Of a stretch of DNA of 64,000 bases, positions 1,769 to 55,900 are shown in pieces (the first letter of the stretch is position 1; every line of letters begins with the position of its first letter). A model generated the notes under the pieces. It was not told the origin of the DNA. It worked only from the letters and a program-made list of their open reading frames with translations, and made no database searches. This DNA comes from Pelagomonas calceolata (Eukaryota), in assembly GCA_918797485.1 (NCBI GenBank), contig CAKKNE010000004.1:2170001-2234000 (forward strand), read 5' to 3'. Position numbers and translations under genes: made by a program.

Positions 1769-4354
1769 ATGGACGCCGCCACCCTCACAAAAATACGAGG
1801 CGGCATGGCCGGCCTCGCGCCGCCACAAGCGAGACAAAAAGTAGGCAACCGCGAGTGCGCGTACTCCTTCGACTCGCCCTACGCCGAGGGCGGGCTGTTC
1901 GTCAACCTCAAGACCTTCGCCGGATGTGGCAGTGACTTCGTGAAACAGGACGCGGCGCGATCGTCCACAACTTTGTACGCGCACCACCGCTGGACCAAAA
2001 TGCCGAAAGAGGACGTCGAGATGAGTGAACCGACGACTTTGGGTGTGGGCGTCCAGGGCGGTTTTGAATCTGAGGACGCTAGATATGATATTGTCAAGGT
2101 GCGGTCATTGGCTGTGGTTGCTGATGATGTAATATTGATACAACTCCCTTGTTCTGACATACCGGAGTATGTTACCATGCTCGTAGACGCCTGCTTGGAC
2201 CACGAGTCCGGCAGCGCAGAATCCGATCGAGCCTGGGCTCTTGTAGAAGATGAAGCGAAACCGTCAAAATACGCTGATACATTAATACAACTGAAACCGG
2301 AGGAAGGCGGTAGATCTGAACCGTTAAATCCCGACCCGGCGTCGTGGCGGTGCGAGTTGGATGGGTCGTCCGAGAACCTCTGGTTGAATCTCAGTACAGG
2401 CTACGTGGGGGGCGGCCGCGACCAGAGCGCGTGGGGCGGGCCGAAGGGCTCGAACGGTGCCCTGAGGCACTTTGAAAGTACGGGCAAGAAGTACCCGCTC
2501 GTTGTGAAGTTGGGCACGATCTCTGCCGCGGGCGCGGAGCTGTATTCGTATGCCCCGGATGAAGACGGCCCCGTCCTCGATCCCAAGCTCGCCGACCACC
2601 TGCGCTTCTGGGGCATCAATATTATGTCGTCCGAGAAGACCGAAAAGACGACGGCTGAACTAGAAGTCGACGCCAATCAAAAGTTCGAGTGGTCGGCGAT
2701 CGCAGAAGCTGGTTCACAGTTAACACCTCTGTCGGGCGTGGGGCTGACGGGTCTGGTCAACCTCGGTAATTCATGCTACATGAACTCTGTTTTACACTTA
2801 TTAGCGTCGGTGCCGGAGATCGGTCGGAGGTACCACGGTCTTGTCGATGACACTGACCAACTCGGACCCGCGGCGCTGTCGCTCGTTAACGTAGCAGACC
2901 CGTCATCCGATCACTTGGCCCAGACGGCGCGATTCATCTCCGCATTGCGCTCAAAGCGCTACGCCAAACCAGCAGAAAGTTTAATCGATCCTGCCTTAGC
3001 CATCGCCGAAAGGCCGACTCTCTCGAGTGATGTGGCCACAAAAGCTGCCGCCGCGACGGTGGCACCTAGAGGCTTCCGGGCCTTGTTCGGCAAGGGCCAC
3101 GTCGAGTTTAGTACGCCGCGACAGCAGGATGCCGCCGAGTACTTAATTTACGTCCTCGACACTTTATCGAAGGCCGAGGCGCCGGCGCTCGCTTCTGACG
3201 GGCGATTAACGCAAGCGGCGGAGCAGGCGAACAACGAACCAGGTCCAAAGCCCGTGGAATACGGCCCCTACGACGTCCTCTCTTCTCAACCTACACAGCA
3301 ATTGTTTGCGTTCAAGGTCGAGGAGAAGACGACGTGTCTACAATCTCAAAAAGTGCGGTACAAGGCCCAGACCGAGTTTACTTTAGCGTTAGAAGTGCCT
3401 GAGAGCATAGTACCTCGACCCACGGTAGAACAAGAGGCGAAAAAACCGAAGCTCGAGGACGTCGCAAAGCCGCGCTGTCCTCTAGATGCTTGTTTGTCCC
3501 ACTGGGCCGCGACCGAATCCGTCGTAGATTATACCTCTCCAGCAACCGGTCTCAGGGGCGAGGCGTCGCGTCATACGCGGCTGCAGACCTGTCCAAGGTA
3601 TTTACTAGTGAAGATCAACCGGTACTACGCTACGGCCGACTGGACTGAAAAGAAACTGGATGTGCTCGTCGAGGTGCCCGAGAAATTAGATCTGTCTCAA
3701 TTACGAGCTCCATCTACGAGACCCGCGGGCGAGGAGGAGCTGCCAGATGACGCCGCACCTCCCAAAGAGAAGTTCGTGCCCGACCCTGGGATATTGGCAC
3801 AGTTACTGTCCATGGGCTTCGATGAGAACGGCTGCAAGCGCGCGTGCAAAGCGACGAATAACGCCGGGCCGGAGGCGGCGTCCGAGTGGGTCTTTAGTCA
3901 CATGGACGACGCGGACTTTTCCGCGCCCTTCGTTGATGACGATGCGCCCTCAGAGAAAAAGGTGGACGAGGCGGCCGTCAACGAGCTCGTGATGTTCGGC
4001 TTCACGCCGCGCGAGGCCGAGGCGGCGCTCGTGGCGTGTAGTGGGAACAAGGAGCACGCCGCGAACTGGTTATTCGAGCAGGGGGAAAACCGGGACCAGG
4101 CCGTCGCCGACGTGCTGGACGGGCCCTCCGCTGCAGCGGCGCCGGCGGCTCCCTCAGACTTCGACGACGGCCCGCCTCATTATGAGCTGAAGGGCCTCGT
4201 GTCGCACATCGGCTCGAACACGGGCTGCGGCCACTACGTCGCGCACATCCGGGAGAAAGATGGAAGGTGGGTCATCTTCGACGATGAAAAAGTCGCCCAT
4301 TCCAAGAGCCCTCCGGTCCAGCTGGCGTATCTCTACCTGTACGCGCGGAAGTAG
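1769..4354 (+). CDS. Ubiquitin carboxyl-terminal hydrolase, USP5/USP13/UBP14 type
   Basis: ZnF-UBP-like N-terminus, Cys box GLVNLGNSCYMNS, QQDAAEY, two UBA domains (LLSMGF, LVMFGF), His box GHYVAH..WVIFDD; ends TAG TAG. Confidence 0.95.
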   Translation: MDAATLTKIRGGMAGLAPPQARQKVGNRECAYSFDSPYAEGGLFVNLKTFAGCGSDFVKQDAARSSTTLYAHHRWTKMPKEDVEMSEPTTLGVGVQGGFESEDARYDIVKVRSLAVVADDVILIQLPCSDIPEYVTMLVDACLDHESGSAESDRAWALVEDEAKPSKYADTLIQLKPEEGGRSEPLNPDPASWRCELDGSSENLWLNLSTGYVGGGRDQSAWGGPKGSNGALRHFESTGKKYPLVVKLGTISAAGAELYSYAPDEDGPVLDPKLADHLRFWGINIMSSEKTEKTTAELEVDANQKFEWSAIAEAGSQLTPLSGVGLTGLVNLGNSCYMNSVLHLLASVPEIGRRYHGLVDDTDQLGPAALSLVNVADPSSDHLAQTARFISALRSKRYAKPAESLIDPALAIAERPTLSSDVATKAAAATVAPRGFRALFGKGHVEFSTPRQQDAAEYLIYVLDTLSKAEAPALASDGRLTQAAEQANNEPGPKPVEYGPYDVLSSQPTQQLFAFKVEEKTTCLQSQKVRYKAQTEFTLALEVPESIVPRPTVEQEAKKPKLEDVAKPRCPLDACLSHWAATESVVDYTSPATGLRGEASRHTRLQTCPRYLLVKINRYYATADWTEKKLDVLVEVPEKLDLSQLRAPSTRPAGEEELPDDAAPPKEKFVPDPGILAQLLSMGFDENGCKRACKATNNAGPEAASEWVFSHMDDADFSAPFVDDDAPSEKKVDEAAVNELVMFGFTPREAEAALVACSGNKEHAANWLFEQGENRDQAVADVLDGPSAAAAPAAPSDFDDGPPHYELKGLVSHIGSNTGCGHYVAHIREKDGRWVIFDDEKVAHSKSPPVQLAYLYLYARK

Positions 4355-12525: not shown

Positions 12526-12978
12526 ATGCGCCGCCGTCACGCCTGCGCGGCCGCGCTGGCGCTCTGCCTGAGCTACTCTGAAGCCGTCGACTGCGTCGCC
12601 GCGGGCTTCGCGCCGTCGCTGCGCTGCGGCTCCTGCGCGACGTTGGAAGCGCTCGTGCCCGACGAGGACATTGTGAAAGACTGCCGGTCCTGCTGCGCCG
12701 ACGACGACAAAGTCACGTACGTCAAGGCGCGGCTCGAGGTCTGCGAATGAAAGCTCAAGCACTACCCCGTCGTCGCGGGCTTCGTCGAGAACAAGGCGGC
12801 CGCCTACGACAAGCTCGAGGTCGTCTACCGCCAGGGCCAGAAGCCGCGGCTCGTGCTGGTCGACGAGGAGGGCGACGTCGGCGAGACTCTACCGATTGGG
12901 GGCTGGACGGAGGACACGATCGTCGAGTACCTCGCGGACACGATCGGCGCGGCGGCGGCGGCGAAGGACGAGCTCTGA
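12526..12978 (+). CDS. SELENOF: Selenoprotein F (Sep15), 150 aa, Sec encoded by in-frame TGA at 12748-12750
   Basis: Signal peptide, Cys-rich domain (C..GF...L.C.SC...C..CC), ARLEVCE-TGA-KLKHYP (CxU motif), conserved PRLVLVD and WTEDTIVEYL after the TGA, C-terminal KDEL, downstream SECIS. Confidence 0.95.
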
Positions 12979-32401: not shown

Positions 32402-35400
32402 TTAAAAGGTCGGCGACTCCTCGCCCTCCTCGGAGCCCGCGCGCATCCGCGGTGGCGTGAACGAAAACCCACCCGCCGCCTGGCCCGAGGCGAAGGTGAA
32501 GCCGCCGGGGCTCGACCCCGCGGGGCTCCCGCCCAGCGAGATGGCCGGCGGGCTGAACGAGAAGCTCGCCGCCGCGTCGGCGCCGTCCTCCTCCTCGTCG
32601 GCGTCCGTGACCCACGAGTCCTCGCCGTCGGAGCCCTCCAGGTCCGTGGCGTCGCACTCGTCGTCGTCGTCGTCGTCCTCGGAGTTGTCGTCGCCGCGGT
32701 GGGCGCCGGGCGGCGTCCGCGAGAAGCCGCCGGTAGAGCCGCCGAAGGAGAACGGCGTCTCGGCGAGCGAGAACTTGGTCGGGTCCTTGGGCCGGTTCGG
32801 GTTGACGGCCGCGGCGCCGAAGGAGAAGCCCTTCGACGGCGCGCCGTCGTCGCCGACGCGCACGGGCGCCGCCGCGGGCGCGGGCGCCGCGAAGCCGGAA
32901 AAGGAGGGCGCGGCGCCGCCGCCGAAGGAGAACGAGGGCTTGTCGCCGCCGCCGCCGAAGGAGAAGGACGGCGCGGGCGCCGACGCGGCGGCCGACGGCG
33001 CCGGCGCGGGCGCCGCGAAGGAGAACGACGGAGATGCTGTCGCGCCGCCAAAGGAGAACGACGGCGTCGCGGGCGCGGGGGCCGGCGCCGCGGGCGCGGG
33101 CGCCGCGCCTCCGAAGGAAAACGAGGGCTTCGCCGCCGCCGCCCCGCCGAAGGAGAACGTTGGTGCCGGCGCGGGCGCGGCGGCGGCTGGCGCGGGCGCC
33201 TTGGCGGGCGAACCGAAGGGTAGCTTGCTCGGCGCCTTGGTGGGCATCGGCGGATAGCCCGAGGCCTTGGCGGGCGCTGGTGCCGGCGCCGGCGCACCAA
33301 AGGGTAGCTTGCTCGGCGCCTTGGTGGGCATGGGCGGATAGCCCGAGGCCTTGGCGGGCGCCGGCGCACTCCCAAAGGGTAGTTTGCTCGGCGCCTTGGT
33401 CGGCATGGGCGGGTAGCCGCTCGACGCCGGCTTGGCCGCGGCCGGCGCGGGCGCGCCGAAGGATAGCTTCGGCGCGGCGGGCGCCTCCTCCGACGCCTTG
33501 GGCGCCCCAAAGCTGAAGCCGCCCGCGGTTGGCGCGGCGGGCGCCGGCGCCGCGGCCGGCGCCGGCGCGCCGAAGCTGAACCCGCCCGCGGGCGCCGGGG
33601 CACCCGCCGCGGGCGTGCCAAAGCTGAACCCGGCGGCGGGCGCCGGCGCCGGCGCGTCGGCCGCCGGTGCCGGCGTGCCAAAGCTGAATCCGCCCGCGCC
33701 GATGCTCCCCGCCGCCGGTGCCGGCGCCGGCGCGCCGAAGCTGAACCCGCCCGCGCCGATGCTCCCCGCCGGCGCCGGGGCTGGCGCGCCGAAACTGAAG
33801 CCGCCCACGCCGACGCTGCCGCCGCCAAAACTAAAACCGCCCGGCCCGACGCTGCCCGGCGCGCTCACGGCGTTGCCGGAGGCAGCGGCCTTTTGCGGCG
33901 CGGCCGGGTTCGGCGTCTCGCAGGCCGCGCACTTTGATGCATCCTTGTCGTTGCGCACGTCGCACACCTCGCACTTCCAGGAGCCCTCCTTCGCCGCGGT
34001 CAGCGACGCCCACGTCGCCGCGGCCTTCGACTCCGCCGCGGGGTCGTCGTCGTCGTCCGTGGCCGTGGCGTCATCATCAGAATCGCCGTCGCCCAGCACC
34101 CAGTCCACGTACCACTCCACAAAAGCGTCGCGCGCGACCGTCCCGCCCGGCGCGAGCTTGCGCAGCGTGCGCCGGTGCTCCTCCTCGCAGTACGTCGTGC
34201 CGAGCGCCTCCATGAGCGCCTGGAATTTTGATGAAGGCACGGACGTCGCACCATCGGCAACGGTGTCGAAGGCCTCGCGCGCGCTCTGGCTTTCCTCCTC
34301 GCGCTCCTCCGCGTCGTCGTCGGAGTCGTCCTCACCGACGTTCGCGCAGAGCGCGACGTAGTAGCGCGCGAAGGCCTCGCGCGTGATGCGGCCGGAGCCG
34401 TCGTCGACCTTGGCGCGCTGCGCCTCGAGCTCGTCGCCGTGGAAGCCCTCGCCCACGCTGTCGAGTAGGTCCTCAAACCGGTCAACTGGTACAACGCCGC
34501 TGCTATCGACCTCATCAAAGGCGCTCCGGGCCTTGGCCGCCTCCGCCGAGTCGCCGGCGGACGGCTCCGGCGGCGGCGCGTCCGGGTCGGCGCGCGGCGC
34601 GGCGTCCCACTGCTCCTGGGGCGACTTCGGCGCCTCGTCGGCGGGCGCGCCGAAGCGAAAGCCGTCCGCGCCGCCCGCGGTCGCGACTGCCGGCGAGCCG
34701 AAGCTGAAGCCGGCGGCGGGCGCGGGCGCCGCCGCGGGCGCGGGCGCGGGAGCCCCGAAGCTGAACCCTCCGGCTGCCGGCGACGCCGCGGCCGGAGCCG
34801 GCGCGCCGAAGCTAAACCCGCCCGCACCGATGCTTCCAGCCGGCGCCGGCGCCGGCGCGCCAAAGCTGAAGCCTCCCGCGCCGACGCTGCCGCTGCCAAA
34901 ACTAAAACCGCCCGGCCCGACGCTCCCGGGCGCGCTCGGAGCGCTCGTCGCGCCGGCCGCGGCCTTGGGCGCGGCCGGGTTCGGCGTCTCGCAGGCCGCG
35001 CACTTTGATGCGTCCTTGTCGTTGCGCACGTCGCAGACCTCGCACTTCCAGGAGCCCTCCTTCGCCGCGGTCAGCGACGCCCACGTCGCCGCGGCCTTCG
35101 ACTCCGCCGCGGGGTCGTCGTCGTCGTCCGTGGCCGTGGCGTCATCATCAGAATCGCCGTCGCCCAGGACCCAGTCCACGTACCACTCCACAAACGCGTC
35201 GCGAGCGACCGTGCCGCCCGGCGCGAGCTTGCGCAGCGTGCGCCGGTGCTCCTCCTCGCAGTACGTCGTGCCGAGCGCCTCCATGAGGGCCTGGAACTTG
35301 CTCGAGGGCACTTCCGTTTTTCCGTCCGCGACGGTGTCAAAGGCCTCGCGCGCGTTGCCGCGTTCCTCCTCGCGCTCCTCCTCGTCGCCACTGTCGTCGC

Positions 35401-38269
35401 TGGCGTCCGCGTTCTCGACCAGGGCCACGTAGTAGCGCGCGAAGGCCTCTCTCGTAATTTTGCCAGAGCCGTCGTCGACCTTGGCCCGTTGGGCTTCGAG
35501 CTCGTCGCCGTGGAAGCCCTCGCCCACGGCGTCGAGTAGGTCCTCGAAGCGGTCGACCGGTAATGAACCGCTCGTGGCCGCGTCGACGTCGTCGAAGGCG
35601 CTCCGGGCCTTGGCCGCCTCCGCCGAGTCGCCGGCGGACGGCTCCGGCGCCGCCGGCGCGGGCGCCGGGGCCGGGGCGGCGGCCGGCGTCGCCGGTGTCC
35701 CGAAGCTGAAGCCGCCGGCGGGGGCCGGCGCCGGCGCGCCGAAGCTGAACCCGCCCACGCCGCCGCCGCCGCCGAAGGAAGGGGCGGGCGCGGGCGCCGC
35801 GAAGGAGAACGACGGCTTGGCAGCGGCGGCGGCGCCGAAGGAGAACGACGGTGCCGGCGCCGGCGCGGCGGCGGCCGGCGCGGGCGCCTTGGCGGGCGAG
35901 CCGAAGGGCAGCTTGCTGGGGGCTTTCGTGGGCATGGGCGGATAGCCCGAGGCCTTGGCGGGCGCCGGCGCACTCCCGAAGGGCAGCTTGCTCGGCGCCT
36001 TGGTCGGCATGGGCGGATAGCCCGAGGCTTTGGCGGCCGCCGGTGCCGGCGCGGGCGCCCCAAAGGGCAGCTTGCTCGGCGCCTTGGTGGGCATGGGCGG
36101 GTAGCCGCTCGACGCCGGCTTGGCCGCGGCCGGCGCCGGCGCCCCAAAGGGTAGCTTGCTCGGCGCCTTGGTCGGCATGGGCGGGTAGCCGCTCGACGCC
36201 GGCTTGGCCGCGGCCGGCGCCGGCGCGCCGAAGGAAAACGAGGCCGCCGCGGGCGCGGGCGCCGCGAAGGAGAACGAGGGCTTCGCCGCCGCCGCGCCGC
36301 CAAAGGAGAACGACGGCGCCGGCGCCGGCGCGGCCGCTGGGCTGCCGAAGCCGAAGGTCGCCGGCTTTGCGGCCGGCGCTGGCGCCTTGGCAGGCGAGCC
36401 GAAGGGCAGCTTGCTCGGCGCCTTCGTCGGCATGGGCGGGTACGCCGATTTCGCAGCAGCGGCGGGCGCCGGCGCGCCGAAGGGTAATTTGCTCGGCGCC
36501 TTCGTGGGCATCGGCGGGTAGCTCGACTTCGCGGGAGCCGCGGCCTCCGCGACGCCGCACGCCGTAATCTTCACCGGTTTAGCAGGCGGCGTGCCTGCCT
36601 CGAACGCATTCAGTAATTCCAGACCCTCGACGACCTCCCCGAAGACCACGTGCTTGCCGTCGAGGTGCCGCGCGGCCGCCAACAAAATAAAAAACTGCGA
36701 CCCGTTCGTGTTCGGCCCGCTGTTGGCCATGCTCAGCAAACCTCGTCGATCATGGCGCATCTTACAAGCTTCGTCAGCGAACTTGCCGCCCTGCCAACAC
36801 TCGCCGCCCGTGCCGTCGCCCCTCGTAAAGTCGCCGCCCTGGGCCATGAAGTCGGAAATGACGCGGTGGAACGTTGTTGACGCGTAGCACCTTTTAGTCT
36901 TGGCGAAGGTGGCCTGGGAATAGCCGCCCTCGCCGGTACACAACATCCGAAAATTCTCGGCCGTTTTTGGGACCTTGTCGGCGAACAATTGTATGACCAA
37001 CCGTCCTAATTTTTCCCCGTCCTTCTCGAGCTCCAAGAAGCAGCGCGGCCCGGTGCCTTCCGCTTCCGGCGCTTGTTCCTGATATTTTTTCTTGAGCTGC
37101 GCCCAGAGCTCGTGCTCGCGGCCGGCGTACTTCTTGAGCGTCGCGTCGACCGTATCTAATTTCCCGGGGTTGTGCTTCTGGTAAAACTCCACGAGTTTCG
37201 CGCGGTGGTCCTCCTTTTCTGGGGTCTTCGCGCCGAACGTAGGCGTGGTGCCGAGCTTCGAGGCGGAGCCGAACGTGGGCGCGGCGCCGAGCGCCGACGG
37301 CGAGCCGAAGGCCGGCGTTGACCCGAGCGCCGCCGGCGAGCCGAACGTGGGCGCCGTGCCGAGCTTTGAGGCCGAGCCGAAGGTCGGCGCCGCGCCGGGC
37401 GAGCCGAAGCCGCCGAATGCCGCCGGGGCCGGCTTGGGCGCCGCCGCGGGGGCGAAACCGAAGGTCGGCTTCGCGGGCGCCGGGGCCGCCGCCGGCGCGA
37501 AGCCGAATGTGGCTGGCTTCGCGGCCGGCGCGGGCGCGGGCGCGCCGAACGGCAGCTTGCTGGGCGCTTTCGACGGCATGGGCGGGTAGCCGCTCGGCGC
37601 CGGCTTCGCGGCGGCCGGAGATCCGAAGGGGAGCTTGCTCGGTGGTTTGGACGGCATCGGCGGGTAGCTCGACTTTGCCGCAGCGGGCGCCGGTGCGGCC
37701 GCGGGACTGCCGAACCCGAAGGCCGCCGGCTTCGGAGCTGGCGCCGGCGCTGGCGCCTTCGTGCTCGACGCCTCGACCGCCGCCTCGGCCGCCTGCCGCC
37801 GCGCTTGTACTTGCGCATATACTTCGTCGACGGACGGCGGCGGCTCCGGCGTCTCGGCGATCGTCCTTTCCAGTTCTTTGCGCGCCTCCACCAACTTCCG
37901 CGCGACCGCCTCGGTTTCCTTTTTTATTTCTTCCCGTCTCAAACGCGCGGCCTCACGGTCCGGCCGCGCCGCCTCCCAGGCCAACCGCGCGCGCTGGAAC
38001 CGCTTCAGCTCGCCGCGCGTCTGCGGCTTGCTCACGGGCGGCGCCGCCTCGGGCAGGTCCGCGGCGACGTCCAGAAACGCCTTGAACGCGTCGGGCTGCC
38101 GCTTGTCCACGCTCGCCGCATCATCATTGCTCGTCTGTGTCGGTGCGAGCGCCGACCGCGCCTTCGACGCGGCGGCGGCGGCATGCGCGAGCGGCGAGGG
38201 CTGAGGCGAGATGTCCGGCGAGAGCAGCGACTGCTGGCGGCGGCGCCGTCTTTGTGGACTGATGAACAT
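32402..38269 (-). CDS. FG-repeat nucleoporin-like protein with cyclophilin domain, two RanBP2-type zinc fingers and EF-hand-like repeats (about 1955 aa)
   Basis: Dozens of FSFG/GFG repeats; cyclophilin FHRVI..FMAQGGDF..SMANSG..GSQFF..KHVVFG (about 36555-37050); W.C..C...N......C..C zinc fingers at about 33910-33985 and 34980-35055. Confidence 0.88.
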   Translation of the reverse strand: MFISPQRRRRRQQSLLSPDISPQPSPLAHAAAAASKARSALAPTQTSNDDAASVDKRQPDAFKAFLDVAADLPEAAPPVSKPQTRGELKRFQRARLAWEAARPDREAARLRREEIKKETEAVARKLVEARKELERTIAETPEPPPSVDEVYAQVQARRQAAEAAVEASSTKAPAPAPAPKPAAFGFGSPAAAPAPAAAKSSYPPMPSKPPSKLPFGSPAAAKPAPSGYPPMPSKAPSKLPFGAPAPAPAAKPATFGFAPAAAPAPAKPTFGFAPAAAPKPAPAAFGGFGSPGAAPTFGSASKLGTAPTFGSPAALGSTPAFGSPSALGAAPTFGSASKLGTTPTFGAKTPEKEDHRAKLVEFYQKHNPGKLDTVDATLKKYAGREHELWAQLKKKYQEQAPEAEGTGPRCFLELEKDGEKLGRLVIQLFADKVPKTAENFRMLCTGEGGYSQATFAKTKRCYASTTFHRVISDFMAQGGDFTRGDGTGGECWQGGKFADEACKMRHDRRGLLSMANSGPNTNGSQFFILLAAARHLDGKHVVFGEVVEGLELLNAFEAGTPPAKPVKITACGVAEAAAPAKSSYPPMPTKAPSKLPFGAPAPAAAAKSAYPPMPTKAPSKLPFGSPAKAPAPAAKPATFGFGSPAAAPAPAPSFSFGGAAAAKPSFSFAAPAPAAASFSFGAPAPAAAKPASSGYPPMPTKAPSKLPFGAPAPAAAKPASSGYPPMPTKAPSKLPFGAPAPAPAAAKASGYPPMPTKAPSKLPFGSAPAPAKASGYPPMPTKAPSKLPFGSPAKAPAPAAAAPAPAPSFSFGAAAAAKPSFSFAAPAPAPSFGGGGGVGGFSFGAPAPAPAGGFSFGTPATPAAAPAPAPAPAAPEPSAGDSAEAAKARSAFDDVDAATSGSLPVDRFEDLLDAVGEGFHGDELEAQRAKVDDGSGKITREAFARYYVALVENADASDDSGDEEEREEERGNAREAFDTVADGKTEVPSSKFQALMEALGTTYCEEEHRRTLRKLAPGGTVARDAFVEWYVDWVLGDGDSDDDATATDDDDDPAAESKAAATWASLTAAKEGSWKCEVCDVRNDKDASKCAACETPNPAAPKAAAGATSAPSAPGSVGPGGFSFGSGSVGAGGFSFGAPAPAPAGSIGAGGFSFGAPAPAAASPAAGGFSFGAPAPAPAAAPAPAAGFSFGSPAVATAGGADGFRFGAPADEAPKSPQEQWDAAPRADPDAPPPEPSAGDSAEAAKARSAFDEVDSSGVVPVDRFEDLLDSVGEGFHGDELEAQRAKVDDGSGRITREAFARYYVALCANVGEDDSDDDAEEREEESQSAREAFDTVADGATSVPSSKFQALMEALGTTYCEEEHRRTLRKLAPGGTVARDAFVEWYVDWVLGDGDSDDDATATDDDDDPAAESKAAATWASLTAAKEGSWKCEVCDVRNDKDASKCAACETPNPAAPQKAAASGNAVSAPGSVGPGGFSFGGGSVGVGGFSFGAPAPAPAGSIGAGGFSFGAPAPAPAAGSIGAGGFSFGTPAPAADAPAPAPAAGFSFGTPAAGAPAPAGGFSFGAPAPAAAPAPAAPTAGGFSFGAPKASEEAPAAPKLSFGAPAPAAAKPASSGYPPMPTKAPSKLPFGSAPAPAKASGYPPMPTKAPSKLPFGAPAPAPAPAKASGYPPMPTKAPSKLPFGSPAKAPAPAAAAPAPAPTFSFGGAAAAKPSFSFGGAAPAPAAPAPAPATPSFSFGGATASPSFSFAAPAPAPSAAASAPAPSFSFGGGGDKPSFSFGGGAAPSFSGFAAPAPAAAPVRVGDDGAPSKGFSFGAAAVNPNRPKDPTKFSLAETPFSFGGSTGGFSRTPPGAHRGDDNSEDDDDDDECDATDLEGSDGEDSWVTDADEEEDGADAAASFSFSPPAISLGGSPAGSSPGGFTFASGQAAGGFSFTPPRMRAGSEEGEESPTF
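33760..35660 (-). repeat. Internal direct duplication (about 820 bp, offset about 1071-1077 bp) within the nucleoporin gene
   Basis: Near-identical nucleotide copies at about 33760-34575 and 34830-35660, each encoding EF-hand-like pair, ZnF and FG block. Confidence 0.9.
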
Positions 38270-38703
38270 CGTTCTTTGCAACCCCTGATTGCAATTTGAG
38301 CAGCAATGCAGCCCTGGTTACGAATTGCCGGCTTGCAAAAATCCTAGTGTTCTTGTGACTCTAGCAGCCCTGGGATTATCGAAGCTCTGCTGCGACTCGC
38401 TGCGGATTTTGTGGCGCGTGCCGGAGTCCAGCGGCCTCGAACCCGTTTCGTCACTTGGCCTCTTCACCCTACTACTCGCCCGAGCGGCCGGCACCCGCCT
38501 GACGCTGCCGCGGCGAGGAGATATCCCAGCTCTGTGCCTGCTGGATTTTCCGTGCTCGTGCGGCGCGTGCTCGCCCACCGCTGCGATTTGAGCCGCTGCG
38601 CGCCGTCGCCGCGTGCCTCGCACCGCATCCCACCTCCCGACGTGCCCTCGACCCCACGCGCCGCGCGACCCTCGCGGACCGCCGCGCCGCCCGCAGATTA
38701 ATC

Positions 38704-50885: not shown

Positions 50886-51742
50886 ATGGCTCAATATGGT
50901 ACGTCACCTCCATCATACCTCGAGACGAGCCGTTGCCGTGAGCCACAGCCGGCAAACACACTGCCGGATGAGACCCACAGAAGGAGTCGCGCGACGGCTC
51001 GACGCCGGCGCCGCGCCGCCCAAGCCGCACACACGCGCCGCGCGCGCCCCGCCACCCACCCCAGACGCCGCCGCGGCGCCCCACCCCCGACGCGGCCGCG
51101 CCGCCCGCGCAACGCCCAACCTCCGTAGGCAAGACGTCCTACTGGGACGAGCGCTACACGAAGGACCCCGAGCCGTTTGATTGGTACCAGCGCTATTCCG
51201 GCATCCAGGAATTACTGCAAAAGTACGTGAAGAAGGACGACGCCGTGCTCATGGCCGGCTGCGGCAACTCGCGACTGTCCGAGGACATGTTCGAGGACGG
51301 CTTCGCGAACATCTCCAACGTCGACATTTCAAGAGTGGTCATCGACCAGATGGGCGACAAGTACAAGGACAAGCCTGCTTTGACCTTCCAGCAGATGAAC
51401 GTGTGTAGTCTCGAATTTCCCGACGAATCGTTTGACGCGGTCATCGTCAAGGGCACGATGGACGCCATTTTATGTGGGGAAGGCTCGACGGCGAACGTCG
51501 CGAAGATGTGCATGGAGGTGTCGCGGGTGCTGAAGCCGTCCGGGATCTTGTTCGTGGTCAGCTACGGCGTGCCGGATAATAGAATGCAGTACCTCGAGAA
51601 CGAGGACTACTCCTGGACGGTCACGACGCACACCGTGCCCAAGCCCACGGTCTCCGCGACGGCCGTGCCCGACACGAAAGACGCGAACAGCGTGCACTAC
51701 ATCTACGTCTGCGCCAAGGGCGGCAACGCCGAGGAGGGCTAG
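50886..51742 (+). CDS. SAM-dependent methyltransferase, METTL13-N/EEF1AKMT4-like; exons 50886-50898 and 51129-51742
   Basis: 230-nt gtacgt..ccgtag intron gives MAQYGKTSYWDERY..FDWYQ; VLMAGCGNS, VDIS, KGTMDA, RVLKPSG; ends TAG. Confidence 0.92.
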
Positions 51743-51857: not shown

Positions 51858-52445
51858 TCAAGTGTTCGCGCCGTCAACGACGCGGCCGCGCCCCGAGTAG
51901 GGGGCAGCACGCCGTCGACGTATCCGAAGGCACCCCGCGCCCGCGCCGGAGCGCGCCGATGACGTTGAGGAGGGCCGGGGAGGGGCGCCTACTGCTGCTT
52001 CGCCAGGAGTCCCGCGTGCCTGCGCGCGAAACGCCACCCGTCGCGCGAGAACAAAAACAGGAGAACCGCCCGAGGGAATCGAACCCCCACTGCGGGAACT
52101 AGAGTCCCGAGTCATTCCTTTAGACCAGAGCGGTTGTGTGAAGTGGAGGACACTGGTGGGCGCGTCTCGGTGCAGGCCACCTTGTAAAACGTGTGCACGC
52201 GCCCGCACGCGTCCGTCGCCGTGATCGTGCCGGCGGCCTCGTCGACGGCGATGGAGTCGCGGAACTTCGTGATGGCGGGGCCGCTCACGCGCGGGCAGTC
52301 CGCGGGCGGCGGCGGCACGCAGTCGCGCGGGTACCTACAGTAGCGATTTGTCACGCGGGTGCGCGTGGGACGCGGCCGCGGGACTGTTTCATGAAGTCGG
52401 ACTGAATCTGCGGGCGCGTGGCCGTGTAACGCGCCATTTTTTCCA
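51858..52445 (-). CDS. Small spliced hypothetical gene overlapping or hosting the tRNA (3' structure uncertain)
   Basis: Strong GC3 coding bias at 52181-52334; a 50-nt GT..AG intron 52384-52335 gives MARYTATRPQIQSDFMKQ|YPRDCVPPPPADC..HTFYK; possible second intron 52180-52020 contains the tRNA. Confidence 0.45.
52053..52057 (-). terminator. RNA polymerase III terminator (T5) of the tRNA
   Basis: TTTTT 6 nt downstream of the discriminator base on the minus strand. Confidence 0.75.
52064..52134 (-). tRNA. tRNA with CUA anticodon (putative amber/UAG-reading suppressor tRNA)
   Basis: Minus strand ACCGCTC TG GTCT AAAGGAA TGAC T CGGGA CTCTAGT TCCCG CAGT GGGGG TTCGATT CCCTC GGGCGGT T: 7-bp acceptor stem, D-loop GG, 5-bp anticodon stem with loop CT-CTA-GT (anticodon 52102-52100), canonical T arm, A15:U48. 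Confidence 0.92.
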
Positions 52446-52927
52446 TTTTTGCTTGGCGTTTGGGCGCTGCCTGCGTGCGTGGCGGTCTCGTACGGAGCGA
52501 GGTGGTAGCGCGCGGCGAGAACGTGATCGCGGCGGTCTCGCGCGCAGCCCTTTGCATTTTCTGACGCCGCTGGCGTGCCGTTCACAGCCAAAACACGAAG
52601 ACAAGGCGACTGCCAACTTTGTCGAGGTGACGAGCTGGGGCGGCTTCGCGGAGCCGTCGGTGGGGTGGGACTACGTGCTGCCATGGGCGGGGGAGGATAG
52701 AAACGTCGAGCTATTTCGTGCGGGGTCGCCCTGCCAGCCGCGTTGCGCTCGGAGAGCGGCGGGCAAGGGCTGCCCTTCCGCGCGCCACGGACGCGGCGCT
52801 TCCGGCGCGGCGACCCCTGTGCCGTCGCCGCCGGCGCGGGCAGCCACAAGCGCTCGAGCTCCGGCCCGGGGCAGCGCGAGCACCTGAGGGCGCCCCGCCA
52901 GACGCCGCCGCGGCGAGCAGCACAAGC

Positions 52928-55900
52928 ATGGGCCTCGCCGAGCGCCTCGCGGCGCATCAAAACAAGGAAGAGGAGGACGACCGCCCTCTAACGGAAGACG
53001 AGGAGCTCGCCAAGAGGATGGCCGAGCGGTCCTGGGCGGAGCGCCAGGAGGAACCGGAGGGCCTCAAGCGGATTAAGCGCATGGGCAAGCAGATGGCGCC
53101 GGATCGCACGTCAGCCCATCTGGCCATGCGCTTCGGGGCACGAGCAGCTCTGCTCGAAGCGTTCCGCGACGCGCGGAAGCAGCAAATCGCCAAGGGCAAG
53201 GCCACACCCATGACGGGAACCTCGACAGTAGCGACGATGGAGGCGACGATGACGGACCACCAGAAGGCCCAGATCTGGCGGTTCTTTAATTCTCAAACAC
53301 AGATGGGCCTCGAGATTCCCTTCTGGCTGGCCCTGGATTGTTTGATGCAGCGCGAGCTCTGTGGGCGGGCTTGTCTCGGACGAGCGCCTCTCGATAGGGA
53401 AGCGTGGGTCGTCGGCAAGAAGCAGGAGAAGATGTACGTTGTTGTAAAAGGTTCCGCTTGTGTCGTCGAAGCGTCGGACGGCGGGGGGACACCTTCTGGA
53501 GGAACGATGGCTTCTGAGGAGGAAGCGACAGACAAGGCCATGGTCGAGGGGCCGGTCTGGAGGAAAGATCCTGCGAACGATTTGCGGAGGGCCTCGCACG
53601 TGTTCGGGTGTCTCAAGGTGCCCGACGCCGTCCAGGAATGCCTGACGAAGGCCTGTTCCGATGCTAGGAAGCTCCGGTCCTTCCTACTGAAGGAGATCGA
53701 CCGTTCAATAGAGTTTGATGCGTTACTCGTGAAGGAAGGGTTTCCCATTGAAATTGGATTGACGAGGACGCCTCGAGAAGGCGACGCGACCTTCCTGACC
53801 GCTGAAGAGCCTCCACAGGAGGAGGAAGAGCCTCCCCAGGAAGAATCTTCGGAGGACGAGGACTCGGATGATCCTGATGTCATAAAAAGACGGGACGAGG
53901 CGAATGCGGACGAGGACGCGTTGTCTGATGTCGACCACGCCGAAGCTTCTAGGGTGATGAAGTCACTCGATGTCATGGCTCAGAACCAAAGATTGGCTAT
54001 AGTGGAGATCGAGGCCGCTTTGCCAGGTTTTCCTGATAAATTATTTGGCAACTTTTTACTGGAGCAGTTCAAATCATTGGATGTGAATTCCGACGGGGAG
54101 ATCGAGTTGAAAGAATTAGCGGAGTGCTGTCGGCGGTGGCGGAAGATTCGGAGGGACAAGGAGCGGTCGCTGGAGCGGAAAGAGGCGAAGCGACTGCGCC
54201 GGGAGGCGCGCTGGAAACAAGCTCTGGAGGAGCAGGTGAAGCCCGAGTACCGGTTCGGCTTGGATCCGTGTCCCACGCCATCGACGCGATGTCTCACTGG
54301 TTGATGTCCACGCAGGTTTGGACGCGGCCGAGGACGAGCCCGACGAGGACAACTCGTGGCAGGACTGGACGTGGGATAAACCCCTGGGGGCCAAGTTTTC
54401 TGCTGGTGCCGAATATTTGTCGTTCAGGACCGGACGGTCGTGGGACCGGCTCTGGAAGGACGCGCAAGAACCGGCAGTCGCTCCCGGACCGGTCGGCCGA
54501 TTGACGCCGTCGGAAGTCCTAGCTTTACGAGCGCGGGGCCTGGGCTTTCTCGCACCACACGCGCAAATTAGAGAATTAGATTGCAACGATCTACTGGTGG
54601 ACGAAAGCACGAAGCCCTCGGAGGTCTTTTTGACGCTGGACGGCACCGTGGCCATCGAGATGCGACGGGAACTCGACGAGGACGACGACGCGGGCGTCCA
54701 CGCCGCCGTCGAGAAGGGCTTGTTCCGGGACACGGTCACTTTAGCTGTCTTGCCGGCGCCTGTGTTGGTGGGTGAGTTCGCGTCGATCGACGGCTTTGGC
54801 AGGAAGCAGTACTGCAAGGTCACGGCGCTCGGGGATTTGCCCGTCCATGCTGGCGTGAATGATGATGATCTGAAATTGGATGCAGCAGAAAAAGACGTGG
54901 ACCCGGGCACGGGCAAACGTAGAATACGAAAAGGGACGCGCGTTCTCGCGATCTCGGCCAAGTTGTTCGAGAAGCTCCTGGCGCAGCGGCCCGAGGAGAA
55001 GCGAGCTCTTGAGAAAGCGGCTCTGATTAAGAGAGCGTGGCTCGACGAGCGCAAGAAGCATCGCTGCGAGGTTCGACGTAGGAGGAATCGCGCGCGGAAG
55101 AAGCGGCTGTCGCTCGGTGAGGACGACCAGTCCACCGTCGTCACGGGGGGGCTGTCTCATGCCGCTCCGGAGTTCACAGGAAGTCGTTATTGGAAGCTCT
55201 GGTCCTGCGGTGCTGTCCTAGCGAAGGGCGCCGAGGACTTGCCTTGGAAAGCTGAGGCATTAAGAACGGACGACAATAACCCGTTATGCGTCCCGCCGTC
55301 CTTCTACTCGGGTGCTGTCTTAGATTTTGATGAAGCACAATTAGCTATGGACTTGGTGGTGGATCCGCCGGACGACGCGGACGTGGAAGATGCCGCGGCG
55401 CGCGCGCGGAAGATCCGGATGGAGGTGTCGCTGGCCGATACGGGTGCGCTAGGATCGTTTTCCTTACCGGGGTTGTTTGATGAGCTGGAGGAGGACGGCG
55501 GCGTGAAGTCGCCGCTGCAGCACTGGAAGGAGGTTCGCTGCCAGCGTCCACCTTCAATGAACGCGCCATCGACGCGCGCCGTCGCCGCACGGGTGATCGA
55601 GACCCCACCAAGACGCCATCGCCGCGACTCACTGGTTGATGTCCACCCAGGTCCTGCCCGAGGAGCGCGAAGCTTTATTGCCGCCCGACGAGCACGACTA
55701 TGTGATGCGCCAGGAGAAGGTCCGGCCGCCCTCGATCACCCAGTTGAAGGCCGTGGCGAAGACGCCGTTCCTCATGCCTTATCCCTCGATGACTTTGAAC
55801 CGAACTCTGTTAGGAGTGAACCTGCCGGAATGCTCAAAATTGGAATTACCCGCGAAGCAGTGCGACGACTCGAAGCCGCCTGTTCTGGATCCCCAAGCTA

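Follow-up and report, generated by a model that had tools for sequence, protein, structure and literature searches.

Conserved tRNA genes with CUA and UUA anticodons in the alga Pelagomonas calceolata, a candidate family of low-level stop codon suppressors

Unless the genetic code has changed, a cognate nonsense suppressor should harm its bearer, and the closest known nuclear tRNAs with CUA and UUA anticodons come from eukaryotes in which UAR codons were reassigned. In the passages of the reports considered here, tRNA-Sup(CUA)/(UUA) pairs serve glutamine in Tetrahymena and hexamitins, Glu/Lys in the ciliate PL0344 and Glu in Blastocrithidia (PMC5304391, PMC10553269, PMC12153298). One of these passages also states that the UUA tRNA of Tetrahymena reads both codons while the CUA tRNA reads UAG (PMC10553269). 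In such lineages, as far as these excerpts go, UAR is a genome-wide sense codon and the tRNAs are for the most part similar to a sense isotype (68-93% in PL0344). The tRNA-Pyl/PylRS system provides another example of a CUA anticodon in genomes that also terminate at UAG, with a tRNA described in part of one source as carrying G1-C72 and G73, and A73 or U73 in some cases (PMC9976931). A third point of comparison is the placement of tRNA genes inside other genes. According to the section consulted, intronic tRNAs are common, and their control by the host promoter is known in Caenorhabditis elegans (PMC4999229), so that intronic location alone is not new; an intron of GUT15 yields a tRNA-like RNA in Arabidopsis, in the portion cited (PMC6152437).

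The tRNA genes reported here, from Pelagomonas calceolata and related metagenome loci, share with the UAR-reassigned eukaryotes a standard cloverleaf that comes with both cognate anticodons, CUA and UUA, as a pair, and a Glu/Gln-class body. They differ in that TAG and TAA are ordinary stops in the alga, in that their acceptor end is distinct, and in that the genes sit in short introns, as shown for one copy and predicted for the others. With the Caenorhabditis intronic tRNAs and the Arabidopsis GUT15 RNA, insofar as the excerpts describe them, they have in common a sense-strand tRNA in a spliceosomal intron, a conserved pairing with the host gene and possible control by that host. Those cases, however, concern tRNAs for sense codons, a suppressor allele from the laboratory or an RNA that resembles a tRNA, whereas the algal genes have naturally conserved stop-matching anticodons and fill at least half of an intron of 106-149 nt. 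No earlier description of this family was found in the collection of papers searched, and the word 'tRNA' does not occur in the main text of the published P. calceolata genome paper.

The starting point was the single tRNA that ARAGORN detected in the window, by which we mean the whole 64-kb stretch of DNA analysed. This gene occupies 52064-52134 on the minus strand (read from 52134 to 52064), is 71 nt long and has A1-U72, U73, a 4-nt variable loop and G37. A permissive ARAGORN run on the window returned only noise. The tRNA scores 50.6 bits over the full RF00005 model of Rfam (gathering score 29, E 4e-9), and with its cloverleaf, its invariant residues and a score above gathering it has the properties of that class; family alignment and pair counts agree. 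Its anticodon loop has seven nucleotides (C32 U33 CUA G37 U38) closed by a 5-bp stem, and U8, A14, A15:U48, G18G19 and a TTCGA T loop are present. A T5 run on the same strand at 52053-52057 is a possible Pol III terminator that is not kept in all orthologues. An earlier note, made from the letters alone, had described a complete cloverleaf with all stems paired. The tRNA is real and the named residues, the A15:U48 pair and the T5 run are there, but there is a U13.U22 mismatch. The cloverleaf is the MFE fold, with a stability not above that of shuffles (z -0.63). The CTA anticodon read in the same note was recovered by ARAGORN and Rfam at 52100-52102 on the minus strand, and the same triplet occurs in this body in 12 other contigs.

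Loose polyA read ends at 52064 and 52094 brought to light a further gene whose 3' half is the same. Relatives were collected with an anticodon-blind pattern in which the acceptor ends and the D-loop and T-loop residues were fixed and 31-61 bases over the anticodon arm were left open, a design that could miss relatives with an altered acceptor end. The pattern matched 108 metagenome loci. The family body was present in 24 of these, 12 with CUA, 12 with UUA and none with any other anticodon, and the other 84 matches were unrelated tRNAs or chance. Together with the window, 25/25 family genes carry CUA or UUA, although the 24 loci are not all independent (L022/L051 and L037/L088 are identical where they overlap). 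No member with a UCA anticodon was found among them. Isoacceptors that serve one split codon box usually differ in just this way, C34 against U34 with U35 and A36 fixed. Position 33 is always U and position 37 always a purine in the family alignment, and CUA and UUA genes scarcely differ in their acceptor and T arms. Judging from neighbouring proteins, the family spans at least two species-level lineages, because the neighbours in L020 and L037 fall in clusters without a P. calceolata name and the L018 neighbour clusters with P. calceolata.

The CUA tRNA is under strong purifying selection. Ten CUA contigs match the window tRNA exactly, though their flanks mostly align at only 82-95%, and the tRNA of L089 carries G31. 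In L012, a CUA orthologue is syntenic over 8 kb with approximately 65-75% identity outside the methyltransferase exon described below and 87% within it. Its tRNA keeps CUA with 7/71 changes, including a compensatory replacement of A31-U39 by C31-G39, whereas 44, 59 and 63% of fourfold sites differ from the window in three neighbour genes (binomial about 4e-10). The L006 tRNA shows 0/71 changes against 30% at fourfold sites. In the alignment of seven family variants 98% of cells are paired, and at two anticodon-stem pairs (columns 28/40 and 30/38) both partners are substituted; taken by itself, the number of pairs does not reach significance (165/500) against a shuffle control that ignores relatedness. 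The relative keeping CTA that the earlier note had proposed to look for thus exists in L012, and its view of a dedicated, conserved tRNA rather than a one-base mutant accords with the 25/25 anticodons and the strong purifying selection.

The UUA genes occur in three settings: 3' of a host stop codon (L020, L024, L071, L072, L080, L104), within a coding gene that stays in frame across the tRNA (L003, L037, L073, L088) and upstream of another ORF (L018, L086). Contig pieces and L080 depths in DNA run X1, which may be the run behind the window, point, among the pieces listed, to four family genes, one CUA and three UUA. Five group-1 UUA contigs (L024, L071, L072, L080, L104) share an identical 7-nt insert between positions 37 and 38, where tRNA introns canonically lie. 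It is also present in polyA reads, and taking it out gives the sequence of the copies without it; it could be a tRNA intron, in that case an unusually short one, or a tolerated insertion.

The intron holding one UUA copy is spliced out of its host mRNA. At locus L080, an RNA joint 76->245 was supported by 79 reads of X21, 14 reads of X24 and one X6 RNA contig, and was absent from DNA run X1. We placed the intron at 75-206 because the 36 letters inside the joint equal the length of L080 209-244. This 132-nt GC-AG intron encloses the tRNA at 110-187; a GT donor just upstream of the tRNA, considered as a candidate, proved wrong, as the reads give the GC donor. Approximately 25-fold depth persists over the intron, and about a quarter of host reads retain it. 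The group-1 UUA host is expressed in the polyA runs examined. Separately, Introner-like insertions that are present or absent among orthologues were seen in L072, L080 (368-647), L037 (~3770-3850) and the window (~54259-54320), and the one in L080 is spliced (RNA joint 367->648). A conserved helix between the ends of the tRNA-bearing introns, or a mobile Introner-like unit, was considered and dropped, as the end motifs are similar with no consistent helix in MFE folds.

A comparable arrangement is predicted for the window CUA gene. The neighbouring synteny anchor is the main exon of a TAG-ended METTL13/EEF1AKMT4-like methyltransferase (51128-51742, plus strand), 99-100% identical to a protein cluster that holds a Pelagomonas calceolata member, which assigns the window to this species or to one very closely related. 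Alignment of 11 loci suggests a three-exon host gene of 87 aa on the minus strand (52446-51989) with the tRNA in its second intron. Exon 1 would span 52385-52446 (ATG at 52446, a second ATG at 52437), followed by a predicted 50-nt GT-AG intron at 52335-52384 and by a putative exon 2 of 56 whole codons at 52164-52334, which lacks a Pfam match and shows 68% aa identity to L012 at 52% fourfold-site divergence. The tRNA would then lie in a 144-nt GC-AG spliceosomal intron (52020-52163) whose donor- and acceptor-like ends and exon frames are kept in 11 aligned loci, with an alternative GT donor at 52151. The coding part of exon 3 (51989-52019) would comprise nine codons and a TAG kept in 10/10 sequences; it varies synonymously in the required frame and the sequence past the TAG is not conserved. 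The distant homologues P0270 and P0273, both short, run straight across the junction predicted by the GC donor 52163. The 87-aa protein has no Pfam match and no usable Atlas match, and a spliced version was sought in databases, where the close matches were all unspliced DNA predictions. Splicing here is deduced from alignment because the host is near-silent in polyA runs: in four polyA runs of one sample (6-12% read), depth was about 0-3 with no joints. Most UUA copies lack a nearby Pol III terminator. A T4 run between the tRNA and the acceptor is present in 9/11 CUA copies versus 1/11 UUA copies with a full trailer, and in the remaining 10/11 UUA copies the first T4 is at least 185 nt away or absent from the sequence available. 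Given the T4 in 9/11, independent Pol III transcription of the CUA copies is possible.

TAG and TAA are in ordinary use as stops in the DNA examined. In agreement with the earlier note, five frames of the window end in TAG: those at 4352, 6909 and 38905, which from their translations we take to be USP5/13-like, ligase-like and HMG-like, and the Pfam-supported methyltransferase (51740) and UBX (60884) frames. PolyA ends of the methyltransferase mRNA map approximately 33 nt past its TAG. Two of the TAG-ending genes, 4352 (+) and 6909 (+), are followed directly by tandem stops, reading TAG TAG in one case and TAG, one codon, TAG TAA in the other, cases too few for an enrichment test. We then scanned for in-frame stops by codon score, using a codon model from 12 confident window ORFs (4,596 codons) and a test that needs 40 codons on each side of the stop. 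In the window, 47/921 stop-ended 40-codon stretches score as coding upstream (25 TAG, 12 TGA and 10 TAA). Clear coding continuation was found only after the TGA at 12748-12750 (+), an ordinary selenocysteine codon in a SELENOF/Sep15-like gene, which provides a positive control. The stretches ranking next are antisense to a long repetitive ORF. The window also contains, at 32402-38317 (-), a 1,971-codon open frame of low-complexity repeats, by eye presumably nucleoporin-like. In 59 kb of family loci, 47/861 stretches score as coding upstream, and TAA ends 14/47 of these high-scoring stops compared with 10/47 in the window. We conclude that UAG and UAA are stops here because the scan finds no clear TAG or TAA continuation and polyA ends follow the methyltransferase TAG.

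Our search of approximately 123 kb (window plus family loci, partly redundant) gave no programmed UAR readthrough target, and neither the CUA-host TAG nor that of the methyltransferase is followed by a conserved readthrough extension. In-frame UAR is not frequent at conserved positions: the 64-kb window has none, and the 59 kb of loci yielded one probable null allele. This sole sense-strand in-frame TAG (L037, 4666-4664, minus strand) lies in a helix-hairpin-helix-like gene adjoining the group-2 host and aligns without gaps to TAT in L003. All four members of the L037 protein cluster stop at that codon. The tyrosine at this position is shared by homologues up to one from a plant and by the sister protein P0292, and does not fit a Glu identity. 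Programmed readthrough was rejected for this site, since the sister keeps Tyr and the TAG copy has seven private changes where P0292 and L003 agree, versus two for P0292; on that count the copy is probably a decaying null allele. The actual UAG recoding that the earlier note raised is so far unsupported, with no target in the ~123 kb scanned.

The body of the tRNA was compared with 214 parsed tRNAs from fetched loci, a mostly viral set partly chosen by body-biased patterns, so that the reference consists of phage and viral-contig tRNAs and not of the alga's own. The top match, Gly(UCC) at 46.8/64, belongs to a TTA/TCC tandem pair in the giant-virus-like contig L014, followed by the eukaryote-type Glu(CUC) of L148 (44.5/64) and a phage Gln (43.0). 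Among the L148 tRNAs that could be parsed, the same Glu(CUC) compares with 32.5 and 31.2 for Gln, a lead of 12 positions, and the Gln of L147, which shares U73, the D stem and A31-U39 with the window tRNA, reaches 38.8/64. The Gln-like identity favoured in the earlier note is so far unsupported; Glu fits the body better. In the excerpt used, the E. coli Glu determinants are U11-A24, U13-G22, no residue 47 and U35, with G1-C72, U2-A71, A37, C36 and a triple with A46 as a further set, and eukaryotic Glu and Gln determinants are listed as no data (PMC9976931). Agreement with the E. coli set covers U11-A24, the lack of residue 47 and U35 in 7/7 variants and U13.G22 in 5/7, the two window-type CUA variants having U13.U22. 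The acceptor and loop set departs from it, with A36, G37 (6/7 variants; A37 only in L012), G46, A1-U72 and C2-G71, and the bacterial Gln acceptor pairs G2-C71 and G3-C70 are missing from the family body.

Two further identities were tried and rejected. The UUA anticodon loop equals that of the L148 tRNA-Tyr except at position 34, but the body reaches only 32/64 and lacks C1-G72/A73. tRNA-Pyl has a 6-bp anticodon stem, a small D loop without GG and no TPsiC. The window tRNA has instead a 5-bp stem, G18G19 and a normal T loop, carries A1-U72 and U73 in place of G1-C72 and G73, and has UUA paralogues; the Pyl label given by ARAGORN derives from the anticodon alone. Glutamate is weakly suggested as the best guess for the family. 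As far as these comparisons reach, it seems about as probable as everything else together, with the rest shared about equally between glutamine and another amino acid or a synthetase of the family's own.

The family has no close counterpart among the viral sequences searched. The exact T-arm/acceptor motif has no viral homologue, blastn against the phage collection gave no match, and the open pattern returned 31 viral loci, none in the family and the best at 66.7 bits. Phage suppressor tRNAs resemble the window tRNA in that CUA and a similar D stem occur together in six viral contigs and one genome contig, but they differ in their acceptor stems, have A37 and score 42-55 bits with the CM. Outside the family, the body is matched best at L014 4001-4292 (same sequence in L076), where near-identical TCC and TTA tRNAs stand in tandem, both with A1-U72/U73 and long T runs, on a contig with thymidylate synthase, RING and PD-(D/E)XK genes; either homology or convergence would account for it.

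We consider it slightly better than an even bet that these genes form a conserved family of low-level, host-coupled UAG/UAA suppressors in a standard-code nucleus, competing with eRF1 and likely charged with Glu. What selection preserves is a complete, elongator-like tRNA whose anticodons are precisely the two able to pair with UAG and UAA, and readthrough of selected stops would be its function. Against this reading stand the lack of a readthrough target, the atypical acceptor end (A1-U72/U73) and the silent CUA host. Several of the same observations, together with the intronic location, the missing terminators and the introns kept in about a quarter of L080 host reads, would also suit a tRNA-shaped RNA without a decoding role, one that is un- or poorly charged and is kept for splicing or processing, as a decoy or sensor for tRNA-binding proteins or, with the least likelihood, as a deacylated aid to termination. 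Intronic tRNA-like elements affecting splicing have been reported, in the passages at hand (PMC6152437, PMC7722341). Such an RNA would leave unexplained why 25/25 genes carry only CUA or UUA while the surrounding stem changes with compensation, and a termination helper would be expected to include the missing UCA member; we regard this explanation as unlikely. Still less probable, by a little, is an orthogonal family (one CUA, several UUA) conditionally released from introns, in which an own enzyme or pathway would place a set, possibly non-standard, amino acid at marked stops of few genes, much as for Sec. A dedicated Sec/Pyl-like recoding by orthogonal tRNAs, with an own synthetase or on-tRNA conversion and restricted to mRNA-marked UAG/UAA in a few genes, is a shade more doubtful again. 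The near-invariant acceptor and T arms, which fit no tested identity set, and the distance between the best non-family CM score (66.7 bits) and those of family members (91-102 bits) speak for it, and a small target set would escape a 123-kb scan; against it, those ~123 kb showed no target, signal, synthetase or elongation factor, and the Pyl determinants G1-C72 and G73 are absent.

The remaining explanations appear improbable to varying degrees. Infection-triggered ochre/amber suppression, which would spoil termination on AT-rich giant-virus mRNAs, would make sense of UUA probably outnumbering CUA three to one in a GC-rich host and of the silent CUA host in the runs examined, but the group-1 UUA host is already expressed in the same runs and host genes also end in TAA, so that we find this defence improbable. 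Only marginally more so is the idea that these are disguised sense tRNAs whose A36 is edited (e.g., to inosine), allowing them to read CAA/CAG. The C34/U34 pair would suit Gln, but the copy ratio is opposite to codon use (CAG 91 versus CAA 35) and no change at A36 appeared among 40 rows listed, in approximately 25 precursor reads, although precursors need not be edited; we know of no precedent for such editing. Import of the nuclear tRNAs into an organelle with reassigned UAR seems yet harder to credit: in the passages listed from one study, pelagophyte mitochondria are thought to import tRNA-Thr but no UAR reassignment appears (PMC7936722), and the one variant code reported in a pelagophyte, in the section cited, is code 4 with UGA=Trp (PMC13582874). 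Finally, no expression was seen for the CUA gene, as would be expected of an assembly error, a private mutation or a neutral pseudogene. That explanation is largely refuted by CUA in 12 other contigs, the divergent syntenic orthologue and strong purifying selection, and has a very slight chance of being right.

If the genes are suppressors, the tRNAs would be made in small amounts from host-gene introns. They could be released from the excised intron by RNase P/Z or be transcribed by Pol III gated by the host promoter; the polyA libraries showed no mature tRNA. Once charged, likely with glutamate, the CUA and UUA tRNAs would compete with the release factor, giving readthrough at selected UAG and UAA codons. 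Such host coupling and low abundance would explain why the cell can tolerate cognate suppressors. The earlier note had noticed neither the UUA paralogues nor the intron setting. In this alga, which is abundant, in culture and has a published chromosome-scale genome, amber- and ochre-matching tRNAs are under strong selection while both codons are still stops. If decoding is true, this would represent a stable natural 'ambiguous intermediate' of codon reassignment, or a regulated readthrough system, and the coupling of suppressor expression to introns would be a natural design for low suppression.
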